Below are positions 12,456 to 63,077 of a DNA stretch of 64,000 nt, one piece after another (positions within the stretch are counted from its first letter, which is position 1; every line of letters starts with the position of its first letter). Source of the stretch: Sarea resinae (taxonomy: Eukaryota); assembly GCA_026026165.1 (NCBI GenBank), contig JAPEUD010000007.1, positions 434,001 through 498,000 of the forward strand, read 5' to 3'. The translations under genes were made by a program, and so were the position numbers. A model generated the notes under the pieces. The model was not told the origin of the DNA. It did not search any database and saw only the letters and a list, made by a program, of their open reading frames with translations.

Positions 12456-13052
12456 ATTGAAGGATCTGTCGTCGTTGATGGATTGTCGTCGGATCGATCA
12501 AGAAACAGTAAGAAAGATCGCGAGACTTTGTGACGGCTATTCGTTTCGCTCTCGGTGGGGGAGCGAGTTGATGAGTCAGCTAGCTGTTCGTGTGGCAGTC
12601 GTGGGCGGAATTTTCGTTGTGTGCGGGTCGGTGTGGGCTTGAGCCCGAATAAGCGAGACAGAGGGAGAGGCTGATTCGGAAGGCGAGAGGAACCCGGTGT
12701 GCGTTATGGCATGGACTCTATGGAAAGCTGCGAGCCTTTGAAGAGGGCAATAACAATAATGGGATGGGTAGAACCGCACGCTGTGACTGCAGATCCTGCG
12801 AACTCGGACCCGATCATGATGCCTTTCCAAGTAGACTTCAACGAGGATTTCAATTCTCAGTGCATGGTAACCTCGACACTAATACAGTGACAATATCATA
12901 GTCGTGGGAGATCGCCTTGATGCTCCCCCTATGCAAACAGCTCGTAGATCAGACGTTCTGGTTGCCATTGAGAGCGAGAGCCATGATGCAGATACGGATC
13001 GTTTCCCTTTTCTACCAGGCTTCCAAGGAGAGCAGCTCTCTGTAATTCTGCA

Positions 13053-13816
13053 TCACTCCTCAAAACCCTCCATCCTCCACTCCCCACTCTTCCCACCCTC
13101 CTTCAACACCACTCTTGTCCCCGCAATGATCATCCCCCGATCCACCGCCTTACACATATCATATACCGTCAAAGCAGCCACACTGACAGCCGTCAGCGCC
13201 TCCATCTCCACGCCCGTAGCCCCCTGACACTCGACCTTCGCTCTAAGCCTAACGCCACCAAATGCTCCAACGCCGCCAGCCTTGTCCACATCCTCAGGAC
13301 CGACCAACTCCACATCCACGCCGACGCTGGTGAGCGAGATGGGATGGCACAGCGGTACGAGATCAGCGGTACGTTTAGCGGCCATGATGCCAGCAATGCG
13401 GGCCACGCTTAAGACGTCCCCTTTCTTCATTGCATTGGCGCTAATGAGGACGTGGGGTTCTGGTGTTGAGAATTGAACGGTGCCGCATGCGATAGCCTTG
13501 CGGTGAGTGTGTGCTTTGGCATTGATGGATACCATATGTGCCGTTCCCGTAGGCGTGACATGAGTGAGCCGTGAACCTTTTTTTGCCTGCTCCTCTTCAG
13601 GCCTTTTTGGAGAAGAGCGGTCTTTTGATGCTAGTATTCGAGCAGTGGAGAAGGCCCGCATTTGAGCAAAGACCATCTTCGTAGGAAGGGAATGAGTGGG
13701 AATCCTCGTCCATGAACTTGGCGATGATGAACGGTCATTGTGGTGTTGATATCGGTGAGATAGATGGAGCTGCTGTTCACGTTGCTGCTGTACTGTCTCA
13801 CAGTGTACTTCCTCAT
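13053..13816 (-). CDS. moaC: Cyclic pyranopterin monophosphate synthase (MoaC/MOCS1B domain); 3' part of the cnxABC/nit-7-type locus
   Basis: LTHV...AHMVSI, KKGDVLSVARIAGIMAAKRTADLVPLCHPI and TGVEMEALTAVSVAALTVYDMCKAVD are MoaC signatures. Reached either via the predicted splice acceptor at 13817 or from its own ATG at 13676. Confidence 0.95.
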
Positions 13817-13976
13817 CTATACCCGGATCAGCACGGTCCGCTCTACACCATGTCGTGACGGGAAATCTCAATGTTGTCTTCTGCTCATTCTGCCATAGAA
13901 CGCCCGACGAGACGCCGTAGATGTAAATGTATCGAAAACAACACCGCTGATGCTCGTGCTTCTTACAAGATAGAAC

Positions 13977-15417
13977 CTACCCACCAATCAAGATCATAGG
14001 CCGATTCTTCATATTCTTCAACTCGCCCATTCCAGCGTGCTTGGCCTTCTTCCTTTTGACTGCCATACCTATGACTTCCAACAGCTCCCTTTCTCTCTCT
14101 CCCCACCCAAGCACGGTGTCGGACTCCGCAATCCCTTGTTGCCGGTCCATTTCGATCTTTTTGATGGCTTCAAAAGCCTCCTCGTCAATTGGATTGCCAT
14201 TGTTGTCCTCTCGGAGCAAGTCGCGCAACGAAACCTCAGAGTTGCCAAATAGACAGACCTTGAGGTTTCCGTCACTTGTAATTCTGAGTCGATTGCAGGT
14301 TCCGCAGAAGTTGTGAGTCATGCTGGTAATGAAGCCCACTTTCCCCAAGAAACCAGGAACTTTGTATGATTTGCTGGTGTCATTCGGATGATCTTGTATC
14401 CGCTTTAGATCCGGATACTTCTCCCTTATGATATTCAACATCTCCTGGTAACTGAGCATCTTCCCCTCGCTCCATTTATTGCCATCAAACGGCATATACT
14501 CGATGAAGCGGACTTCAATATCCTTCTCTCGTCCCATCTCAACGAACGGAATGACCTCTCGCTCGTTGAGTCCTCGCATGACCACGCAATTTATCTTCAG
14601 CTTGATACCGGCGCCTAGTTTGTTCATCTCCAGTATGCGGTCAATGCTTTTCATCACCGCCTCAAATCCTTTGCGACGTGTCATGATCTGGAATTGGAAA
14701 GGATCTAGAGTGTCCAAGCTCAAGTTGACCCCGGTCAATCCGACTTCAACCATCCTGTTCAATTTTCGATGTAGCGATATGCCATTCGTTGTCAAACAAA
14801 GCTCGCGCAAGCCCTTAGGGCGGAGCGATCCAATAGATTCCATGAGAGGTACAATATCGCGTCGTATCGTAGGCTCACCTCCTGTCAGACGGATCTTCGT
14901 CACGCCCTGAGAAACGAAGAGCGAAGAGAGGTAGAAAATCTCCGGTGATGTAAGCAGATGAGCCTGCGGAGATAGTGGGACGCCCTCTGGACAACAGATT
15001 AGCAACCACCGCCGAACACCACCATGTCTGAGCCATACCTTCCGGCATGCAGTACAAGCATCGAAGATTGCAACGCTCCGTAACACTGATGCGAAGATAA
15101 TCGTGCTGTCGTTGGAAGTCATCGGTCAAAAAAGAAGAAAAGGGCTTTGCGGTCTTGATAGTTTGCTCTCTTCTGGACCGAGGGCTTTCAATGCGCGACG
15201 GAGGCGCTGGAAAAGGTTTTGGAGGTGGAAACTCGTCAACCTGAGGAGTTTCTTCGATTGTTGCTGCTGCGGCTGCGGAAGAAATTTCACGACAACGGGG
15301 AGTTGTCGTTGGGTAAATGTGCAACCGCCTGGACAGAAACCGTTCTGGAGAGCCAGCAACGCTTCTGCATGGGCGCAAAAGCGCCAGCGTCGAGCGTATA
15401 TAGGCTTGCTCTGCCAT
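13977..15417 (-). CDS. moaA: GTP 3',8-cyclase (MoaA/MOCS1A, radical SAM), Moco biosynthesis step 1
   Basis: Exons 15039-15417 and 13977-14986 give 462 aa. [17 protein letters not shown] (CxxxCxxC), [35 protein letters not shown] and C-terminal MILIGG*. The N-terminus resembles a mitochondrial presequence. Confidence 0.96.
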
Positions 15418-16087
15418 GGCGTTTGCGTAGCCACGTAGGAGAGAAGTTTTCCTAAGGGTCGCTGTAAAGGTCGTGGACAGGTGCGTAAGAAGTGAAACTA
15501 TTCCGTGAAGGGGCGAATTGTATCTGCCGAGACGTGTTTTCGGACTGGCAGCCAAAAGAATACGATCGTTCTGGCAGCTGTACTGGTGGTGGCCATTATT
15601 TATTACCGCATCTGAATCGTCAGCATTACTGTTGTTGGCTTCTCGATCATTATTGACAGGGATTGATGCAGCTTTGTTGATGGATTGGCACATTCGCCGC
15701 TCGAGTGCTGCCCGTAGTATGCGATCTTCCTAGTTCGCCGTGTTCTAGTCCTCTGGAGTTCCCCGCCGCCGTCACCCCCACCTCGGCGCGATCATCATCC
15801 CCAGCCGAATCGACCTGGCTAGAGTAGTGCTGCTTCCGAGCACACCTCACTCTCTACACCTGCTGAAAGGGGCAAGGCTTGACCACGAACGCCCACAAAT
15901 ACAAGACAGAAAGCATCGACTTTTCACTGCATGATACACTCACAGCTGGAGAGCGATCAATGTCTTTTTCATCTATGAAATGGATGTCTATCTACTACTA
16001 GCTGCTGCCATAGAGAGTCCTGTGCCCACCGAGCCTATAGTGATTTCAACCCAATCTATCAACGATATTGACGTATCGCCCGCCGCT

Positions 16088-17899
16088 CTACAGTAATTTG
16101 AAATATCCAGGCTGCAGCTTCTGGAATACCTGTGCTGGATCGTACTTTTGGGCAACTTGCCTGAGGCGGTGGAAACTGTGCCTGCCATAGGTGGGGAAGA
16201 CTTCCTGGAACTCACTCGCATAGTTCTGGTAGACGAAATCGTGATCCAGGCCCCACGCCTTGGCCTGTGCTACCGTCCGCTCGATGATTCTGGCGCAGAC
16301 ACGCTGAATAGCTTTATCGTCTAAGGGATCCATGTAGCTGATTTCCAAATTGAGAAGGATAAGCGGGCCGTCTGAGGCTGAAAGTCCAAGTGCATTGCCG
16401 CCGTTATTCGACATGTGACTCAACTGGTCTGTTGTGATGATCTGGAGAACACACGACGGGATAAGCCCAGTAGCATTCTCGACAGGTGTGAACTCCTCAA
16501 CGAACACTTTGACGATGAAAATAGCGAGATCGGAATCGAGCTTGTAGGCGGCAGCCCATGACTCCTGACGCTGACCATTAGGGGTCAGCTCGGCGAATTC
16601 CTCGGTGATATTGGCCAGGGTCTTGATTCCGCTGGTGTCCCTAAAACTAGGAATGGCCTTGAATTTATCGAAGATTGGCGGATCTGCCACAGGTAGGGCG
16701 TATTGAATATTGACTGCGGCGGTAAGTAAACCCCCGATCCAGACCATGGGGACGACCAGGGCAGCATTAGGATCCATAGCACTGTTGAAGCCAAAACCGA
16801 CAAAGGCATCGATAACTTCATGCGCGTGTTCGCTGCCATAGAATCTAAAGCCACCCCACATCATTCCTTGCGGAAATGTTAAAAGATCGAAGCGTGTAAC
16901 GATGCCGAAATTGTTCCCACCACCGCGCAGGGCCCAGTATAGGTCTGGATAGGATGTCTGATTAGAATTAATAATGGAGCCACCAGCAGTTACCAGCTAG
17001 AGATTGTTAGCTGAGATATCTGAGACGGAAGCCTTGCAGTCTACTTACTTCGTAATTGATAACGTTATCACAAGCCCAGCCATACATGTTTGAGAAGAAG
17101 GAGACGCCGCCTATGCAGAGTCAGGTGTTGCTCATGGGCTGGTGATATGGCTTTTTGATACTTACCTCCAAGCGTCAAGCCGCCAACGCCAACACCAGAT
17201 ACCCGGCCACCAACTACCGCAAGATTGTGTTCTTCCAATGCGGTATAAACGTCGTACCAAGTATTCCCCGTACCAATGCATGCTACTTTCTTGTCTTCTG
17301 ATAACGAGATCGACTTCAATCCGCCCAAATCAATAGTCATTCCGTCGTCGATACTAGAGGCGCCAGCGAATCCAGCATGACCGCCACTTTTCAAGGCAAA
17401 CGGACACTCTGCGAGGCGGGAGAGAAGCAATGCGACGGGTAGCTGAGAAATGTGGAGAGGCCGGAAGATGCAGTATGGTGCAACTTCTCCTTGTTGCTGC
17501 GCCCAAAATGCCGATCTAAATTGATGATATAGGAAGCTGCCTCTAGGGGTCACAGAACCATTATAGAAAGCTGCCAGAGTGGAGCACTAATATAGAGACG
17601 TCTGTTAGAGACACGAATATGTTGAGCTGTTTATGCTGAGATGTGCCAGACAGACGACATACCGCGTATGAGCAACCTGGCGCCTGGTAGCCAGATATCG
17701 AAGTTAGAACCTCTACGCCGTCGGTCAAATCTAATCCGAGGGAAGAGAGAGCTTGAAGGACATTTGCTCCATCTCCAGCCGCAGGGAAGCCAGATTCTAG
17801 GATGCTTTGGATTGAATATTGGAAAGCTGGGGCATCGAAGGCAGCGACGTTTAGACAATATAAAAGGGTTGCCGTGATATAGAGATGAGACGGTAGCAT
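16088..17899 (-). CDS. Secreted FAD-linked oxidoreductase (VAO/berberine-bridge-enzyme-like, AA7-type)
   Basis: Exons 17663-17899, 17166-17586, 17049-17110, 16088-16996 give 542 aa. Signal-peptide-like N-terminus, FALKSGGH (covalent-FAD His motif), VGVGGLTLGGG, DLYWALRGGGNNFGIVT and C-terminal YQNY...KYDP. Confidence 0.88.
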
Positions 17900-19405
17900 G
17901 GCTAGTTCTAAGAGATCGCCTGGTTGGCTATGTCTAGGTCTCGAATGAGCGTATCGAGAAAGATTTGCTTTATCTAGCTTTTGTATTTAAAATGCAGAGT
18001 ACCGGCCGTGTCTGTCGAGAGTGGCAATGTCGGAGGTTGGAGATCAGAAAAAGACGGAACAGAAGGCGAAGTGAGGGGAAAATAACAAGAAGACAGCAAA
18101 GAGAGCATTCTACGGATAGATCACAGTGCATAAGACAAAACGGTGAATTCACAAAGGTTCGGGTTTGCGATGTGAAGCAGAAGTGAATGGACAGTCCAAA
18201 TAATCCCGTTTCCAAACAGCGAATAAGTGAAGAGAGGGAGAGAACAGAGAACAAAGAACACGGCAACACGAAGTTCATGATAGACGTTCCGGAAGGTGCA
18301 CTGCACGGACATATGATCTGTGACCATCCATGGCGAGTTTCCTGCCAGATGCACTCCCTGCCAGATGGACAGAAGGCGAAGGACGGTCGCCCGGTCTGTT
18401 TATTTAGCTGGAAGAAGAGCATAGGCACCATCATTTCACCGACGGCTTGAAGATATTCGAGCACAGATGCCACATCAGCCATCTGACCGATAGGGTGATC
18501 CGGGTTAGCCTTCCGAGAAACGGCAGCGATGGCCTACTGATTAATTATTCAGAGCATACATATCAGCCATTTGTAACACAAGATGCGACAAGAGAGTGGA
18601 GCAATTTCCTCGGAATCGCAAGAGTTGAATAGGTAGATGCTTGAGATGAGTGGTATATCGGAGCCCTGACACGCCGATAAGCGGTGCCATCCAATGCTCC
18701 CATCATCCATCATTCATGATGCTTTCAGATTACCAAGAAAACGGCCAATCCATGAAACCTGCGCATGATCGCAATAGCGACGACGACAACGACGACGACG
18801 ACGATGACGATGACGAAGAACAGCAGCCTAATATCAATGAATCCAACGGGTGTTACTCCCTTTCTTCCATACCTATCGCAGTACGGAGTACCAGGGCAGG
18901 TCTTCCCGATCGACGTTAGCCCTCCTGGCCTCCATTCCCAACGCGATCCATGCCCGATTGGTGGTCTCGGCAGAGCGATGCGGGCACGCACGTCAAGCAC
19001 CCGCGGCATGGAGATGCCCGAATCGAAATCCCGGTGGCCCTTGGCGCCCCGCGGCGGCCGGCCTCGACCCTTGTAGCAGTTCTGATCGCAGCGAAAATGG
19101 CGTCACAGAATCCACATAGCGGCCAGCCCACTACGATGTACCATCTGCGCGATGATGCAGTCAGTGAGCGCATCTCTCACTCATCTGTGGGCACGCTTTG
19201 AAATCACGACATCACGAGAGAGAGATATATATATTTATACATGTTACATATCCGTAGCCCCACCCAGTCATACGTTCGACAAATTTTCCAAAGAGAATCA
19301 CTTGCAGTCGATCATCGACAGTCTCCATAGATCCTTTCTTGATTCCAACAGAGCAACTCCCTTTCAAGGAAATAGAAATCAAATAATAGAGCAATCTCCA
19401 TCAAG

Positions 19406-20278
19406 ATGGCATCCCCACGCGTTCTTCTCCTAGGCGGGCACGGCAAGGTCTCGCTGCTCATGACACCGCTCTTCCTTTCGCGCTCCTGGAACGTCACATC
19501 CGTGGTGCGTAATGCGGATCACCGCGCAGAGATCGAAGCCACAGGCACCGGCCATCCAGGAAAGGTGTCTGTGCTGGTGCGAAGTCTAGACGACGTCAAG
19601 AGCGACTCAGACGCACAGAGCGTGCTGGACGAAGTGAAGCCCGACTATGTCGTCTGGTCAGCTGGTATGTCTTGCCTTTTTGCTTCGAAACAACCTCGAA
19701 CTAACGAATACCCTTTTCCAATAGGCGCCGGTGGCAAAGGCGGAGCAGCACGTACCTACGCGATTGACAAAGACGCCTGCATCCACTTTATCCGAACATC
19801 CCTTGCAACGCCGAGCATAAAAAAGTTCCTCTTAGTCTCGTACCTAGGCTCGCGCCGCAACCGGCCCGGATGGTGGAACGATGCCGGCTGGGCCTCGACG
19901 CAGAAGACCAACAGAGAGATCCTGCCGCATTACTACGCGGCGAAATTGGCCTCGGATGAAGTGCTCACTGCCTTGGCCCACAAGCGCGCCGAAAAGGGCG
20001 ATAAGGAGTTCCAAAGCATCCTGCTCCGGCCCGGCGCTCTAAGCGATGAGGCGCCCACGGGCAAAGTGGCGCTCGGCAAGACAGACGCCAGAGGCAGTGT
20101 TAGTAGGGGCGACGTGGCGGCCGTGGCCGCGCGCTTGTTAGAGCGACCAGATACAAGGGGCTGGTTTGATTTGCTGGAGGGTGAGGAACCTGTGGAATCG
20201 GCCGTGGAGAGAGTGGTCAAGGAGAAGGTCGATTGTGTTGAGGGCGAGGATTTGGAGAAATTGTATAGCGTTGCTTAA
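19406..20278 (+). CDS. NAD(P)-binding Rossmann-fold protein (atypical SDR, YMR090W/UPF0659-like)
   Basis: LLLGGHGKV, VVWSAGAGGKGG after removal of the in-frame intron 19665-19724, YYAAK, ILLRPGAL and VSRGDVA. Confidence 0.85.
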   Translation: MASPRVLLLGGHGKVSLLMTPLFLSRSWNVTSVVRNADHRAEIEATGTGHPGKVSVLVRSLDDVKSDSDAQSVLDEVKPDYVVWSAGMSCLFASKQPRTNEYPFPIGAGGKGGAARTYAIDKDACIHFIRTSLATPSIKKFLLVSYLGSRRNRPGWWNDAGWASTQKTNREILPHYYAAKLASDEVLTALAHKRAEKGDKEFQSILLRPGALSDEAPTGKVALGKTDARGSVSRGDVAAVAARLLERPDTRGWFDLLEGEEPVESAVERVVKEKVDCVEGEDLEKLYSVA

Positions 20279-20365: not shown

Positions 20366-22787
20366 CTACATTCGCGCCTTCAAGTCCACGCGCATCTCCC
20401 TGACCAAGCCGCTCGAAATCCAGTCCGCAAGTGCGAGGGCAGTAATCATAGGATTCGCTCCACTGGCACTCGGAAACACGCTTGTGTCCGCCACGTACAA
20501 GCCACGGGTACCCCAGACCTGTCCGCGAGGATCGACGACGCTGGTTGTCGGGCTGCGGCCCATGCGACAGGTGCCCATTTGGTGGGCGGAGATGAAGTTG
20601 GCATCGGGAGAGGGCAAGGCGCGGCGCCGGAGGGCGGAGAGCCAGGCCTGGAAGGCGGGATCGTTTATACCGCCGTTGCCGTCGAACCCGTCGTCAGCAT
20701 GATCAGGGGTAGGATTCCGAGCAGGACGGTCTTCCCGAACGAAAGTCGGCATACCCTCAAGCGCAACAAAGATCTCACGAGCTCCCGCCACGTAATTGAT
20801 CTTCGCGAGCGCAATGACCCCCTCGAGACAGTTCGCACGATCGAAGGCAGACGGCGAATACTGGACCCTGCAGCGGCCGTCATGAGGATCGGCGAAAACG
20901 CGGCCCGGGTCTCGATCGCGTGTCAGAGAGATGAAGCCGCTCATGCGGTTGAACTTCGCGCACAGGAGCTTGTACTCGAGACCGCCGAGCCAGGGCTGCA
21001 GGGTTAGGAATTTGGAGGGCAGCATGGTTGTTGCTTCGAGCTTTGGGCCGTGGCCGTGGCCGTCGAGATTCTGGAATTCGTCGCACACTGTTGTGAGGAT
21101 ACCGCCTTCCCAGGGGCGCACTTCGTGGTCGTAGACAGCGCCCATGAAGTATACTGTGCGAGATTAGCATGTGGATGTAGTACATGTACGGGGGATATTG
21201 ATGGGCTACCTGGGTGAAGATGCAAGTGTCTACCAATTTGCGAGTTTCGTAACCCACTTCTTAATAGAACTAGCGGACTATTGAGACTCCCGGCGGATAC
21301 GGTGACCTTCTTAGCTTGGATGATGACTTCTCGTGTGTGCCGGCCTCCTGATAGACCTCCATTTGCATCTCTCGAAGTCCATGTTCCTTGCACCCCCGCC
21401 GCCACCCTTTCCCCGTTCTTCTCCTCAAATAGAATCCTCTGTGCGTCGAAGCCTTCCACGAAACGTGCTCCCGCCGCTGCTGCGTCCGGAAGCCAGGTAA
21501 CAGCCGGTCCTTGCTTCTCAGCCGCTCCACAGCCGAGGCTGCAGCGCCCACAGTAATGCGTATTGCCTGCTGTATTCTGTGGGACATCCTTGACGCTATA
21601 TCCTAGCTTGCGAGCTCCTTCAAGGAGGACACAATTGGTATGATTGTGCTTGATTTGATTGGCCGAAACTCCCATTCGGTGGCAGACCCGATCAAGGCAG
21701 TCCTGGAAGGCAGAAGACGTGAAGAAGGGAAGCCCGCCTTCTGCCCATTCTTTACGCACATAGCCTTGAGTCTGGAGAGAAGCACTCCAATTGATGGTAC
21801 CGCCGCCGCCCCATGCCTGCCCAGCTATAGTGTTGATGCTGCTGTCATCCGCTGGTGATGTTAGCCACGCTTCTACCGTTCCACTAAGGTGATCACAACT
21901 TACACAGTTCTGCGCCACCATTTGTGAAGAGATGGAAACTCCCTTCTTGCTCCGACATGGGGAGGCTCTGAGGTGGATGATGGTATGATTTATCCACGAC
22001 AATGACTCGGTGGCCTGCCTCCGCGATATTCTTCGCGCAGACACCTCCACCACACCCGCTGCCAATGATAACAACATCTGTGTCGACGACTTCTGGCTGA
22101 TAGCCAGGTGGAAACTGAAGGAAGTCGAAATCAAAACCCCATTCTCGCTTCCCCTGTGCTCCAACGCGTGGAAAATCAAGGATAGGCCCAAGTGCTGGAC
22201 TGGAGAGAAGCCAGCTTTGCTTGCATAAATTTGTCAGTGACTTGTATGCTTGTCGAAGGGGAGGAAGACGAGCTTGAGCCCAGCCACGGAGGATAGATTG
22301 GCGTGCATTTAGGGTTTGCGAGTGAAATGGGACGATAGATCCCGTCAAGAAGAGGCTTCCAGTCCTGGTACTACGATCTTCTTCAGCGTCTTCAGCTAAG
22401 AAGGTATTACATATCTTACTTGAGGAGATATAGGACCAGAGCCAGGCTCTTTCGAAGGTCCTGCCGTACAAAGCATGCCAGTGTCCGATGAAGCCCATTT
22501 CTAAAATCTTGCACGTCGCTGGCCCGTTCGAAAAGGTATTTCTCGATGACACGCTCATCTCGACTGCCAGACCCGGATTCCTTCAGCTTGCCGACAGCGG
22601 CTGTATAATCCTCATCTGGGATCAACAAGGAGGACGAGTCGGATGTACGCGCCGATTTGACTGCGGGGATCACCGTATCGGCTATGGCAAGAAGCGTCGT
22701 CCATTGAGCTGGCGTGAGAGGCTCGTCTTGAGGCGCTGGAGGAAGTGGGCTTGCTAACGGAGATAAAACACCTGGATTACTTGCCAT
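20366..22787 (-). CDS. Long-chain fatty alcohol oxidase/dehydrogenase (GMC oxidoreductase)
   Basis: Exons 22420-22787, 21904-22370, 21210-21851, 20366-21153 give 754 aa. DVVIIGSGCGGGV, GGGGTINWSA, CGRCSLGC, SAHQMGTCRM, ADTSVFPSASGANPMIT and C-terminal ARM. Confidence 0.9.
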
Positions 22788-25700
22788 GATTCCGTAGCTT
22801 AAGAGATACGCAGAATGGAGAGTCTTAGATGAGGGCAGAGATCAAAGCATCAATTGGCAAAGGCGATATCTTGAGGGACTGAGAGCAGGAATGGTACAGC
22901 TCCTTAGGGAATCGGGATGCTTAGACGAATGAGTACTGAGATCTGATATCGATAAGCGCAAAGCCGTCCTCGAGATTCTAATCGTCCTTAGTGCTCTCCT
23001 AGGGCCGCCACAATTGAGACGAGACCACACGTATTCAAGCAACGAACTCACGAGAAACTTGAGTGAGAGCGTCCCAGCATTTGAGAGGGAGAGTCCCAAC
23101 GACCATTTCCTGGATCGACTGAGGGTTGCAATCAAGAGTCAATGGAGGCATCGCCATGCCTCGGCCCATCATGAATGAGGGGTTCAGCCTCCTCGCCCAT
23201 CATTGGACGCATACGGACAGCTACTGAAGTAGATTCGAATCAACCATCTGCCAAGTACGGGGTAATTAGCCGAGACCTCAGGCCTACCTTACCTAGAACG
23301 GACTTGAACCACGTGCGGGGGCTGCACTCAAAACTTCCATTCATTGCGCACTACACTCAATGAACAATGGTAATGAGAGGCGCCGAACTCATGATTTTCA
23401 TGGCCATGACAAACGGAAGGGGGATCAAACTCAATCAGATGAACCCGGAGATACGGTATGCACTCGTATTGACCCAATCGACAATCCCATCACCATCGAC
23501 GCAGCAATTGCCGTAGCTGAACACACATATTGATGAGATCGATAGGGTCGTTATCCGCCACCGCGCCAACCGTCATATTCTGCATCATATATATGGAGCT
23601 CGAGGGGACGGAGTAGTAGGGGGAGGGGAGTGAGTAGCGGTGGACGTTGGAAGCCCATCAAGATACTTCGTACCTTACCGTCCTCCCTGAGATTACTAGG
23701 TACTTACATCGTGCATCGTACATGGATGACAAAGGGCGGTATCGGTCGGGGGTGGTTGACGCTGGCCGTGCTTGCTCGCCACGCTGCACAGTGACACAGA
23801 GAGACAGAGGCCCACGACAGAGATCGAGATCGCGATCGGTAGATTGGTTATGGGAGCCTCTCATTGGTGTATCTGCCGTAGACACTGGGTGCTGTCAGAT
23901 CCATCTCAGTTGCTCCACCCCTCTGACACGGCACCAGCCATGCTGCAATTTCCGCCCTCTAGCGGCACGATGCAGTCCGCCTCTGACATGCATGGCATGC
24001 TATTCCGTCCTAGCGGCACCGGCTTTCGGCGCGCCTTCGTCTTCCGTGTGGCGGCCTCGCGCCCTCGCGCACTCTCAACCCGCCATGCAGGGACGGCCAT
24101 GCGCGCCAAGCCGATCTGCGAGCCAATGGACGTTGCGCGATAAGCAAGACGCCCAACCGGGAAAGATGTCTTGCGCCTTGACCGGCATGCGTCCAGGATG
24201 GGACTGGTTGGACTCGATAGGCCCGGCATGATGGCGACGGCTCGAGTCGAGACACTGGTACTCCGGAGTAGACACTGGTAGAGACAGGTAGTCATGTTCG
24301 TCTAAAGTCTTCTCAACGCTCTTTGGGGCAGCGATTGACGAGCGATATGCAACTTCACTTATCTATTCGAGGAGTGACCTCCGACCTCTTCTCATCTCCC
24401 ATCCTCCCATCCTCCCCTCTCATCCCTCTCCTCCGTCTTTCGCCCGCACCTAGATGTGGCCGGAAGACACGGTTGGCCCCCTCTGCCTGCTCTTGCCTGA
24501 GAGAACAGGCATCAAGGTGCTTACGGCTCTGCATGGACGCCTCACAACTGTGCCGTCTTGGATTGCCTCCCATGATAAGAGAGATCGCCGCTTGTATGTA
24601 GAGAGCATGTCCCAGACACACAGCCACTCGCCCGTAGAGTATGCAGGCAACGAAGAGGCAATCAAATTGACGGCACACCGAAGAGCGTGCTTATATCCAT
24701 CATCTCTTGGACGTTCCAAGTCGAGACACGGGCCGATTTCTGATCGCCGTCCATTCGTCCATACTGTACGAACCCGAGGCTCCGCTGTTGCGGCTCCAGG
24801 GACCAACAGCTGCACGTCTCCTGGCCGCTGGTTCAAGGTCACCACGTTGAGATCGACCTAGTCTCTGCAGAGTGGGCAAGTGCACACCGCATGCTATGTA
24901 ATAACATGGAGTCCAGATTTCTGTAGCTTCCAGTCATTATGTACGAATTACTCTAGAGCAGATCTTTTGGAGAGGGGGTAAAGGGGGGAAGGGGAGGGGG
25001 GCTTGGGAGAGCCACCAAGACGTATCCGATGCCAGAAGATCCAGAGTCCCAAGTCCTGCCTGGCGGACATGGATGTACGCATTACTCGTAGAGAGCAAGG
25101 GAGATGGAGAGGAGATGAGAGCCCAGCAGCCAAGGCAGGCGACAGATTCCCCGAAATGACCATGCTAGGAGACGCTTTACTTTAGCAGATCCAACGGTAT
25201 CCTGGGGCCCATCGCTCATCCATCGCTCATCGTTCTCCATCGGCGGGCGTAAGGTACTCTACCTTGCCCTAGTCCATCATCTCCACCGTCGGGCCCTGTG
25301 CGAGTTCCTACTATGTAGTAGTGTTGACCTCGCAGCCTGTAGGATTGCTTCGATTCTTTAGTGGGTAAGCGAACGGATGTGGATCTCCTAGGATTTAAAA
25401 CTACCCGTTGTCGCCCACGCTGCTGCAGCAAGGACCCTTCCAATAATCCATCCATCGGCCTGCTACTGACCTGCGGATACTCTGTTACATATTTCATGGT
25501 CCGTGTCGCGCTGCGGATGCCGCCTCACTCACTTCTACAATCCTCACACACCTACATGATAATACCGTAATTGTTGCCCGTCTCTTCCATTGTCGTCTGG
25601 GAACCGGCAAGACAATCTTCATCGATCGAGACGCATACCAGCCGTCGCCGCGTAATACTTGGGTCTAAACTGTTCGCCTGCGTTAGCCGACGCTGAGCCA

Positions 25701-58291: not shown

Positions 58292-61117
58292 TCAAACCCC
58301 GGAATCGTCCTGATCAATCTTGTGGGTTTTGACCCACTTGTCCCAGCCTTCACATGTCTCGATAGTAGGCGTCAAACTACCAACTGAGGCCTCAATGTCG
58401 CGTTGGCGTTCCATGATCTGGAGGGCCAGGCCCGAAGATGCATGCCAGGCTGTTCCATATATTATTAGTTTCATGACGCGAATTGAAGCATTAGCATCGG
58501 AAAGGCTGGGACCAAGCTTACCGATATGACAGTGCAGAAGCCAGACACTGTGAGCATCATAGCACGTTAGCTACTATCAGTCCGCAGACAGGAGCTGGAA
58601 GCTCGCTAATGCTTACCCAGGATTGTCCGGGCGGAAGGCAATGGCCAAGTAGCCATTAGCCGGCAGCATTGCCACATCGCGTCGCGGAGGATTGTGGAAG
58701 TTGAAGCTTTTGGGAGATTCGGTTTCGTTGTACTGATTGACGCTTTGGCCCAGGATAGCAAAATCGTGGCCGTGGAGCTACATTCACGTAAAGGTCAGTA
58801 TTCAGACGTGCAGAGAAGGCTAGAAACTAGGAGCTTAATGCAACTAGATGGAGCTTACATGGATAGGATGTGCGGCCGGAACCTCTCTCTTAGTCGTATT
58901 AAAACGCGTCAGATTTCCTAGATTGGCATCAGTTGACGCTCTGGTGAGACATTGCTAAAAATCAAACCTGTGATGATCAGATAGACATACTGCATATCAA
59001 TATTTAGCTCTTCTTCCCTTATTTCAAGGGAAAAGGGTCGTTTGCTGCTTACTCCTTCCTTATAGTTTTCATCAATGACAGCGTAGTCGGCGCGGAACGT
59101 GGTGTTTTGCAGATCCAGAATAGTAGGCTCTGAAAAATCAAGCCTGTAGTCCTCGTTAGACCTCGCACGAATAAGGATGAACGGTCAAACAGAGTAAAAC
59201 ATACAGCGGACTGGAAGAGAGTTTAATGTCGAGTAGCATTGGAAGACAACTTACCAAAGAGGCGTATCTGTGAGGTCCCAGCGCTGAAAGCCATGCTCCA
59301 AGGTGAGGTCTAAAGCAGCCTCATATGTGTCCTTGACGACATTGTTCACGGGATGTTGCGAAACCTCCCAGGGTACGATGGGCACCAAGCTCGCCACTGG
59401 AGGATCGGAACAATTTGTGGTAAGACCTGGATGAGGTGACGATGTTGGGAGTTCCTGGCTATGGGCATCATATCGAATTATGCCGGTTAAGGAGCTGTTC
59501 CCAAGAGGGCTGATAGTGCCGCAACCAGTTGTCACCTGCGTACGCATCCAGTAGTTGCCGTCCTTGACGGGATCTGATGGGTTGGCCTCGACAATGACCG
59601 AATATCGCTGACCTGGTTTTGTCGTAAGACTTATAGCCAATAAGTGAAAGCGGGAAAATTAGCTTACCAATGCCGAGAAAGATCGACTCATTTTTGAAGG
59701 GATGGATGGGTACAAGATCTGTGGATACGACTTGAAGAAGATGATTATCAATGGAGAATGTAAACATAGACTCCGTAGATGCATTGATGATGCGAATAAG
59801 ATATTTCTTTCCCTTCTGCAATGTCCTGGTAAATAGCGAGTTGCCTCCTACGCACAACGGATCTGACTTGTTGCAGGTGTAGTTACCTTGATGCTGTTTA
59901 GTACATAGGTTAGAGGAGATGAAGGTGAGAATTACCATGACCATCAATCAGGATGCTTGTCATCACAGGAAGACCGCCTGTATGAGCGGGGTCAAGTTCG
60001 TGCTGAAAATCTGCAAAAGCACTGTTGTGGCTCCAGTCGTTAATAAGGATAGGATCCCATGCCTCATCGTAGCTGGCGCTAGTGGGGCCGTGGATGAGCA
60101 GCGGCCCTATTAGAGTTATTAGAGGAGACCACAATAATCTGAATTGGTAACATACCCGCGACGCCATCCGGATACTGCAAAGAATAGTGACTGGGAGGGC
60201 ATTAGCTTATGACGAGAAGGCAAGGCTGGTCAAGGTCTACCTGTGATACCACGTGTGACCATACTGCACGGCCTTAAATTTGTAGGTAAAGGTGTTTCCG
60301 TCCTAGCAAGGCAAATTTCAGCATATAGACTCCTAACCCATGCGATCATAGGATGCTTACGGCGATAGGGCATTGAGTGACTCCTGAATATGGATGATCA
60401 GAATTTCCATCAATGATTACCCCCATTCAAACGGCAGCACGTACCATTGACACCGTCCATCTCGTTACTATTCAATTGACGAATTCCATGCCAGTGAATC
60501 GTGGTCCCATTATCCTGGACGTAGTTCGTGACGTGAACCGCTACGATAATCTATCAGCAACTGCGTGACATGCTCCGACTTTTGGACTTACTAATATCGT
60601 CTCCCCAGCATGCCTCTATGAAGGTTCATCAGTCGGCTGAAGCCAGATGTAGATGTGAGTAGATCATACCGATAAGTGGACCCGGGTAAGTACTGTTGAA
60701 CACTTTCCCGTGCTGCTTGAGGTAGCCATCTGGGGATATGGCTTTGTCCGTCACATTGAGCCAGAACTATATAGAAAAATCAGAGCCGGATAAGTCTGTG
60801 TCGGATAGTGAGAATACTTCGCGATGTACGCCCTGAGGGGTCCGATCTTCGTAGTCGGTGTGGATGTCAAATTGGCTCCAAAGTGGCTGCTTGACCTTGC
60901 GGTCTCGGATCCAACAGTCGCGACTGTTTGGCCCGTTGCAATTCTCCCAGCCCGTGTACGAAGGATACTCGCACCGGAACCCTTTGGAGGCATGCTCGGG
61001 ATGAACGATAATCCCGTCACTTAGTGGAAGTGGCCGTTGCGCCAAGTCTCCAAGTTGAAAGCTACTGAGGGCAGCCAGTTGAAGCAAAGCTTCGAAGCAG
61101 CTATTGATGAAACCCAT
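58292..61117 (-). CDS. Multicopper oxidase / ascomycete laccase (AA1), 16 exons
   Basis: Exons 60818-61117, 60670-60766, 60592-60615, 60445-60540, 60361-60383, 60241-60302, 60156-60190, 59936-60106, 59668-59886, 59255-59612, 59053-59143, 58968-58989, 58859-58917, 58617-58777, 58522-58547, 58292-58449 give 633 aa with consistent phases. All four Cu motifs (HWHG, WYHSH, HPIHLHGH, HCHIAWH) and C-terminal DSGV are present. Confidence 0.93.
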
Positions 61118-63077
61118 TCTTTGCCACAGAAGAGCAAGCAGAAATATGCAAAGGGGCAATGGAGAGAATGAGGGAAATTGAGGGAATTATATTTATTTGG
61201 GCATTTCGAGACATAGACATAAGGAAAGACGATCACATATTACAGCCCCACTGTACGTGATGGGCTGAATCATGCCAACCGTGACACAAAATGAAAGCCT
61301 GAGAGCTTCTGGTAGATACGACACCTCGGAAAAAAGACGGCAGAGAGCCGCTGAGCTCAGCCATAACCTATTTCAGGGGTTCCAAGGCACGCCTGGTCCA
61401 GGCCCCCAAGCGTTCGTTCGCCATTCCCGTAGCTGAAAGTAAGCATGTGTTTCGGATACATCTACTACAGTAGAAACATGACGTCCGAGGGAAAATGCGT
61501 GTCACTGCGGCAACATGGCAAAGAGTGCCTAGAGTGAAGAGATTGCCTTCTTAAGGCATACAGATTGAGGAAAATCATCTTGATGGCCGAAGGCACCAAT
61601 CAGTGTATCCTGCAAAGAAAAGTAGAGATCTAAAGCGAGAGCAGAGCCGCTGTGCATGGGATTCAAGCACCTGAGATTGTACTGATAGAGGAACAATCAA
61701 CATATGGAATGTTCATTCTGAAAAGCCCACTAGTAACAGAACAGACGAGCTATGGCCAGATTGAACACTCAATGCAAGCCATTGCGTTGACGTTGGTGGT
61801 AGACGGTCAGCAACCTGAGCTGATCGGCACTAGATGGAAAGAGACCGCTGCAGACATGAGAAGATGACGACTGGGAACTACTCCTCATTCACATAGGGCC
61901 GACAAAGAAGTCAGATCGTTGTAGGATTGTGCTAGACTGAGAGCATGAGCCGTGAATCACCTCAAGTTCCTTCCCCAGCTGATGTGAGGAGATACGAAAG
62001 GAGCAACGAATCATTGGGCTCGGTCGATAAACCACAGTACAATGCTTAGCCTCGATTGTGGCCCCCACAGTCCTGTAGTCGTAATGGCTCATAAGGCGTC
62101 CCATACAGCGGCTAAGTGTCTATACCAGGCGGGAAGAATCATAATCTCGACCGCATACCGCGGATGCGGATTTTGGATTATACCACCATTACCCACGGTC
62201 AGGCATCGGAAAATTGGCGAGCCCGAGAATTCAAGCCAGCCACAGCCATCCAACGCAGGGAATCCTGCCGAGGCAGGGGGCCTGTCCGTAAACAGATGTT
62301 AGAGAACGCCCCGAGGCCTAGCATTTCGATCTGTCAGAGGGCCCCCGCGAAAGTCAGACCAGACGAAAACAAGCCGGATTGGATACACTATCTTACCCAG
62401 TAAATTGGGAGTTGGAGCGGATCTCGTATGACATCCATATGGAGATGCAATGTGGAGGTAGTTGAGACAGGCACAGGTGCCGCCGAGCCGTGTCGCCGGC
62501 GTCGCCTGTGTCGCCTGTGTCGCCTGCCGCAGTAGCAAGATCAACGACATTCGGAATGCGCACATGTATAACCGAAAGGAATATTGTTGTGTTCCAACCA
62601 GAAAGCTAAACGGGCACCCGAGAGAGACTTCTAGTATCTAGTTTATGTCCACCTCTTTTCACAATACCGCCCAAAACTCAATTGGGTCAGATGCCCACAG
62701 AAGTGGCTGAGTCTGATCGTGTGGTCCACCGGCCAAACATAGACCCTCATAGGATGAACGGACTCTAGTCTCTAGGATGGGGGAGCTGGCGTTTCCTCTA
62801 CTAAATGCTAAGCTAGTCAGAGCATATGATAAAAGCAAGCCTAATGACATTTCTCAAGACTGTACAGGTAACAAGAGCAAACCACATCTGCTATATACAC
62901 TATGCTATATGTGCTGTATTCTCGATCCATTTTGCTTGTGTCTGTCTATACATCCACTCTTGGAAATGCATCCTTATGTCTCATGGGTTCAAGCACCGGA
63001 GAAGTAGCGTGCCTATTGACCTTGAGAGTTACGATAGATGACTCGGACGGCTCTGATTCTATTGATGAGTTTATATT

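Follow-up and report, generated by a model that had tools for sequence, protein, structure and literature searches.

Introduction

The locus considered here lies on the minus strand of a 64,000-nucleotide stretch of Sarea resinae DNA (referred to below as the window), and it raises the question of how two separate enzymes, MoaA and MoaC, are obtained from a single gene in which the MoaA frame closes on a stop codon and the MoaC domain follows farther on in the same frame. The answer favored here, to which a probability of about 0.72 is attached, is that one intron carries two competing donors that are placed 4 nt apart and share one acceptor, so that the ratio of splicing from the first donor (D1) to the sum of splicing from the second donor (D2) and intron retention would set the ratio of MoaA to MoaC. 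In an earlier, sequence-only reading of this DNA, a simpler switch was proposed, in which retention of the intron yields MoaA and its removal yields a MoaA–MoaC fusion; readthrough of the genomic stop codon was raised there as a further possibility.

Structure of the MoaA–MoaC Locus

The locus is an orthologue of nit-7, cnxABC, and MOCS1 and encodes the first two enzymes of the molybdenum cofactor (Moco) pathway. In the 25.5-Mb genome, one match was returned for each of the two domains, which are thus present as sole copies, and the Pfam domain order is Radical_SAM and Mob_synth_C before the genomic stop, followed by MoaC after it. The best homologues are found in Candelaria, Geoglossomycetes, and Sclerophora, which marks the gene as one of a filamentous ascomycete outside the Sordariomycetes. 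Once intron 1 is removed, MoaA is complete at 462 aa and terminates in Gly-Gly-stop; the Gly-Gly end is essential to the enzyme. By eye, the Arg/Ser/Leu-rich start of exon 1 is likely a mitochondrial presequence, and the N-terminal length of the predicted protein resembles that of the Candelaria homologue P0004. The coordinates of all features are collected in Table 1.

Table 1. Features of the MoaA–MoaC locus, in coordinates of the window (a slash marks the predicted cut at a donor).
Feature	Position	Strand	Basis
Exon 1: start codon, Arg/Ser/Leu-rich N-terminus, CxxxCxxC radical-SAM motif	15039..15417	-	Sequence
Intron 1, 52 nt, GTATGG ... GCTAAT ... CAG	15038-14987	-	Sole scanned GT-AG pair giving an open MoaA
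Exon 2: MoaA core to NRPMILI and first G of Gly1	13985..14986	-	Pfam Radical_SAM 9.7e-19, Mob_synth_C 3.8e-38
Gly-Gly codons and genomic stop, GGT GGG TAG, overlapped by both donors	13977..13985	-	Sequence
Donor D1, G/GTGGGT, 168-nt intron, predicted 714-aa GG-less MoaA–MoaC fusion	13979..13984	-	Sequence and conservation
Donor D2, GG/GTAGGT, 4 nt 3' of D1, 164-nt intron	13975..13980	-	Conservation
Donor-like GTAAGA behind the stop, 18 nt after D1	13961..13966	-	Consensus-like sequence
Branch site GCTGAT	13827..13832	-	Sequence, acceptor-region alignment
Acceptor TAG, common to D1 and D2	13817..13819	-	Sequence, blind rule, alignment
Initial 4 nt of exon 3, A-TGA	13813..13816	-	Asp-Glu in the D1 frame; completion of Gly2 and stop in the D2 frame
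Linker motif RAFST, candidate mitochondrial processing site releasing MoaC	13644..13658	-	Sequence, by eye
MoaC domain and final stop TGA	13053..13535	-	Pfam match 13535-13092, 6.2e-50

Several observations concern the surroundings of these features. Upstream of the presumed start, the exon 1 frame stays open for approximately 100 codons (15729-15417, minus strand) with an earlier in-frame ATG near 15693, and an N-terminal extension from this ATG could change targeting, as human MOCS1 exon-1 variants do. In the linker, RAFST is a candidate mitochondrial processing motif. By eye, otherwise divergent linkers from many orders often carry a W..IP.HLL-like motif followed by R.FST or R.YST (approximately 13715-13644 on the minus strand of the window), a combination that is possibly a conserved processing or targeting signal. 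The linkers between the A and B parts reach approximately 250–800 aa in Dothideomycete models (P0102, P0089, P0192, and others), versus 40–110 aa elsewhere. By eye, the neighboring open reading frames resemble genes for an FAD-linked oxidoreductase (16088-17986), an NAD(P)-binding protein (19376-20278), a long-chain alcohol oxidase (20366-22841), and a multicopper oxidase (59251-61186), all on the minus strand; no Moco or nitrate gene cluster around the locus was evident by eye in the window.

Two Donors in One Intron

The elements named in the sequence-only reading are present in the DNA: MoaA ends in ATT GGT GGG TAG at 13988-13977, the frame after this TAG remains open for 307 codons to 13053, and D1 at 13984, the branch GCTGAT at 13832-13827, and the TAG acceptor at 13819-13817 delimit a frame-keeping intron of 168 nt, the removal of which gives a fusion of 460 + 1 + 253 = 714 aa that lacks the GG tail. 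What had been missed is D2. When D2 is joined to the common acceptor, the junction reads ATT GGT GG/A TGA, that is, Ile-Gly-Gly-stop, and the product is the same MoaA as that from retention; D2 use is therefore predicted to give MoaA-Gly-Gly-stop from a spliced mRNA. Of the proposed switch, the GG-ending MoaA and the GG-less fusion via D1 hold; retention is probably not the only route to MoaA. By eye, none of the other nearby acceptors yields the MoaC frame when joined to D2. The two donors are balanced in their pairing with U1, at approximately six Watson–Crick pairs each. The GTAAGA behind the stop could possibly serve as a minor route to a MoaA with a spliced 3' region, comparable to the dispensable second donor of N. 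crassa; this candidate was set aside, as it is not conserved in the donor-region alignment.

In the proposed mechanism, D1 would cut within Gly1 and remove Gly-Gly-stop, leaving an inactive MoaA fused to the linker and MoaC, and this fusion precursor would be imported into mitochondria, where MoaC would then be released, as has been shown for N. crassa. D2 would cut within Gly2, with the first base of exon 3 completing Gly2 and the next three bases supplying the stop, and an intact MoaA would be made. In unspliced RNA, translation would end at the genomic TAG and give an identical MoaA; this TAG also forms part of the D2 donor.

Conservation of the Splice Sites

Metagenome contigs were scanned for the MoaA C-terminal motif, which returned at least 113 loci. 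Among the matches listed and the window, 59 were assigned to the ascomycete type by the upstream peptide, and 47 remained after 12 near-duplicates were dropped; the loci are related to each other, so that the counts given below overstate independent events. A downstream MoaC could be located in 29 of these 47 loci, and the flanks of the remaining 18 are mostly short. Acceptors were chosen blindly as the first YAG beyond the first CTRAY located 30 nt or more past D1, without use of frame or stop information. The Gly-Gly codons are GGT GGG in 45 of the 47 listed loci, versus 77 GGT and 63 GGG among 389 upstream Gly codons, and, of the 24 listed loci in which both an acceptor and MoaC were located, 22 have the blindly picked acceptor in the MoaC frame; donor and acceptor are thus conserved beyond chance. 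All 47 carry a genomic stop after GG. The ascomycete-type loci L083 and L104 read GGT GGC, which changes D1 to GTGGCT, and both D2 and the exon-head stop are absent from them. Orthologous loci had been proposed earlier as a check on the switch, and they bear out the donor and the acceptor; neither the frame nor the openness of the linker is conserved.

A Stop Codon at the Head of the Downstream Exon

If D2 is used, a stop codon should stand at bases 2–4 of the downstream exon, a prediction drawn from the window alone before it was tested on the orthologous loci. Such a stop is found by the blind rule in 29 of the 40 listed loci with an acceptor site (28 of 40 by a slightly wider rule), whereas the background for any base followed by a stop is 2–4%, from 3 of 150 comparable sites in the window and 4 of 103 at other positions within the loci (3/37 and 4/21, respectively, when base 2 is T). 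The other seven of the 47 listed loci yielded no acceptor site, and all seven have a poor D2. The stop accompanies the quality of D2: among the 28 listed loci whose D2 carries G at +5, 27 have the stop by the blind rule or 26 by the wider rule, versus 2 of 12 loci lacking this G (Fisher p 4.5e-6, uncorrected for kinship and with the +5G split chosen after the first results). Loci L008 and L021 keep the stop despite a poor D2. The stop is also limited to one offset, with 26 loci there versus 0–2 for any one of the nine others compared, and its identity at that offset varies (TGA in 19, TAA in 4, and TAG in 3).

In the D1 frame, the junction residues are variable, including D-E, G-D, D-N, G-K, and D-R. 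Together with the interchangeable stops, this variability indicates that the conserved feature is the stop rather than the amino acids. In loci without an exon-head stop, the Asp codon is often GAC. Alignments of 15 acceptor regions and 19 donor regions display the same pattern of D2 and exon-head stop. At the level of sequence, therefore, a second donor and its frame-specific consequence are both conserved across orthologues, as would be the case for a functional tandem donor. Selection on the exon-head stop would imply a biologically relevant level of D2 use, either as a main route or as a leak that is rescued, and D2 is probably functionally used. Since D2 and the conserved exon-head stop would give the same MoaA by splicing, retention is probably not its sole or main source. 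The genomic stop is what the GTRRGT donor consensus spells in the MoaA frame.

Distribution across Lineages

The sequence LEHMKN precedes RPMILI in five Sordariomycete proteins and is absent from five others, and the loci with the HM signature have neither a D2 with G at +5 nor an exon-head stop. Judging from genomic sequence, D2 and the second stop appear to have disappeared from Sordariomycete-type loci, in agreement with the published intron retention in Neurospora. Annotated fusion junctions were inspected by eye for compatibility with one base plus stop, a necessary condition only, on junctions that are themselves gene-model predictions: 40 of 44 non-Sordariomycete models are compatible and four fail (22 of 24 in the first homologue set are compatible, and 18 of 20 from 22 further homologues fetched), compared with 31 of 76 Sordariomycete models. 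Excluded from this count were 21 models that keep a GG internally and one that lacks the motif. For instance, protein models from three Aspergillus species have ILI-D-K junctions that are compatible with the exon stop.

That gene models would report a single isoform had been expected in the sequence-only reading, and all 120 retrieved models are indeed A–B fusions, although the search was biased toward fusions. For annotation, this means that only the fusion form is given; moreover, 20 of the 120 keep an internal GG and look mis-spliced.

Similar arrangements were found in three non-fungal, multi-exon loci, which were picked for D2 and a MoaC match and in which the choice of acceptor was made by eye and with knowledge of the MoaC frame. 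In each, D2 is GTGAGT, and the in-frame downstream exon starts with a base plus TGA, namely GTGA after a 362-nt intron in L039, ATGA after a 1809-nt intron in L047, and GTGA after a 135-nt intron in L048. With an intron of 1.8 kb, routine production of MOCS1A by retention would be less likely. It may tentatively be suggested, at somewhat less than even odds, that the 4-nt donor pair, with its Gly-Gly-stop assembled across the junction, is the ancestral MOCS1 switch of opisthokonts, retained by the majority of Pezizomycotina classes as well as by some lineages outside the fungi that are probably animal; the retention of Neurospora and the exon-9 scheme of vertebrates would then be derived, and the genomic stop partly a by-product of the donor consensus.

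A different bicistronic arrangement is seen in three other non-fungal contigs (L004, L011, and L064), in which a continuous MoaA ends in GG-TGA, MoaC follows in the same frame 102–696 nt later, and no GT is present at the D1 position.

RNA Evidence

One RNA run, X1, contained 0.23 of the sampled words, and its locus-matching contigs span 12836-13720 at approximately 99% identity, which covers the MoaC end only; no contig spans the junction and no joint was listed, a gap that counts neither for nor against splicing. Two short contigs from other organisms in the same run, ending at 13974 and 13978, run unspliced past the stop and possibly represent DNA. Among the 113 metagenome loci listed, no D2-spliced transcript was recognized. 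Two candidates were considered for spliced transcripts and rejected: L053 has a continuous MoaA without a downstream MoaC, and in L071 the MoaC frame is open from the donor, yet a normal acceptor lies at 241 nt and the contig is taken as genomic.

Alternative Explanations

The observations could also be accommodated by the Neurospora mode alone, in which MoaA arises by retention and the fusion by D1, D2 is a leaky cryptic site at most, and the exon-3 stop rescues mis-splicing or reflects acceptor or protein preferences. Retention has been demonstrated for nit-7 of N. crassa (PMC7232280), the genomic stop after GG is universal among the 47 listed loci, and the unspliced contigs of run X1 point in the same direction if they are RNA. 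However, a GTRRGT donor would spell that genomic stop in frame in any case, and retention alone leaves unexplained why three interchangeable stops occur at a single offset, why the stop co-occurs with a good D2, and why an identical layout spans a 1.8-kb intron; this explanation is accordingly considered unlikely, with perhaps one chance in several. A division into two genes is considered very unlikely. Here, MoaC would have its own promoter and start at Met 13676, an in-frame ATG ahead of an Arg/Ser-rich, presequence-like stretch, and RNA contigs are confined to the MoaC side, although such coverage does not in itself point to a start. Against it stand the conserved donor, branch, and acceptor with the in-frame relation noted above for 22 of 24 listed loci; the Logan and JGI proteins P0089, P0183, and P0192, which are one frame across the junction and would represent spliced transcripts if intron-free; and the N. 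crassa B part made from its own Met, which was not imported and gave no complementation (PMC7232280).

Programmed readthrough of the genomic TAG would produce a 768-aa MoaA-GG-X-linker-MoaC protein. The intron is in frame and stop-free in the window and in L051, and these are the only two of the 29 listed loci with such a linker, about the chance level; MoaC shares the frame of MoaA in 13 of the 29, and intron length modulo 3 is split 14/6/8 among the 28 listed loci with a good D2. A run of 53 stop-free codons has P = 0.054 in mononucleotide shuffles, before a frame factor of 1/3, and the intron peptide between the MoaA stop and exon 3 has no Pfam match. TAG followed by G is not known to be a leaky readthrough context. 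Because frame and openness of the linker are not conserved in orthologues, readthrough as raised in the sequence-only reading is unsupported, and it is rejected here as exceedingly improbable.

Significance

What genomic comparison probably adds to the known switch is a pair of conserved donors, 4 nt apart, through which Gly-Gly-stop is assembled at the junction; this would be new in fungi. The current model of fungal control is based on intron retention in Neurospora; if D2 is used, the ratio of MoaA to MoaC would be set by donor choice in most other filamentous ascomycetes. The spliced products would differ by only 4 nt, and gel-based RT-PCR would consequently miss D2. If true, this would be a rare case of a conserved and functional 4-nt tandem donor, and if the ancestral reading also applies, the pair would rank as a frameshifting tandem donor of deep conservation, undescribed for fungi.

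Comparison with Known Systems

A moaA/moaC architecture with a splice switch between A and AB forms is of a kind already published. In nit-7 of N. crassa, according to Wajmann et al. 2020 (PMC7232280, where Probst et al. 2014 is cited for this gene), one intron encodes the GG motif, the unspliced RNA yields NIT-7A, and splicing of 1460-1696 yields NIT-7AB; both forms are required, NIT-7AB is cleaved after mitochondrial import, and the unspliced form increases on nitrate. The same text describes a second donor 9 nt downstream that is dispensable, and 5' RACE gave no 4-nt variant. The locus studied here shares with nit-7 a single MoaA/MoaC gene, an intron of which the 5' end consists of the GG motif and stop, and a GG-less AB fusion with a linker, and D1 coincides in position with the N. 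crassa donor whose use eliminates the GG motif. Unlike N. crassa, with its retention and extra donor at +9 nt, the present locus has a donor at +4 nt and a stop in the next exon, from which MoaA by splicing is predicted; N. crassa is set apart through the loci of its class-mates, which carry the EHM signature and are without the layout of D2 and exon stop. The cnxABC locus of Aspergillus nidulans, reportedly the subject of Unkles 1997, is an orthologous two-domain locus. It is discussed as bicistronic in PMC7232280.

Human MOCS1 similarly yields an A form with a GG end and an AB form without GG from one gene, the B part being freed by cleavage (bioRxiv 10.1101/429183). In the same source, the MOCS1A transcript of type I is spliced, 15 nt of exon 9 are missing from type II, type III skips exon 9, and the stop lies inside exon 9. 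Unlike this exon-9 stop, the predicted stop of the spliced A form in the present locus is built across the junction. No description of a 4-nt donor pair in MOCS1, nit-7, or cnxABC occurs in the titles and abstracts found; the abstract of Gray and Nicholls 2000 reportedly lists alternative donors in animals, and these may include a 4-nt pair. Most tandem donors are described in PMC8055015 as uncharacterized or noise. The present pair is like other tandem donors in that its two GTs lie 4 nt apart, share one acceptor, and shift the frame; it is unlike most of them in that the pair appears to be conserved and is predicted to provide two required enzymes.
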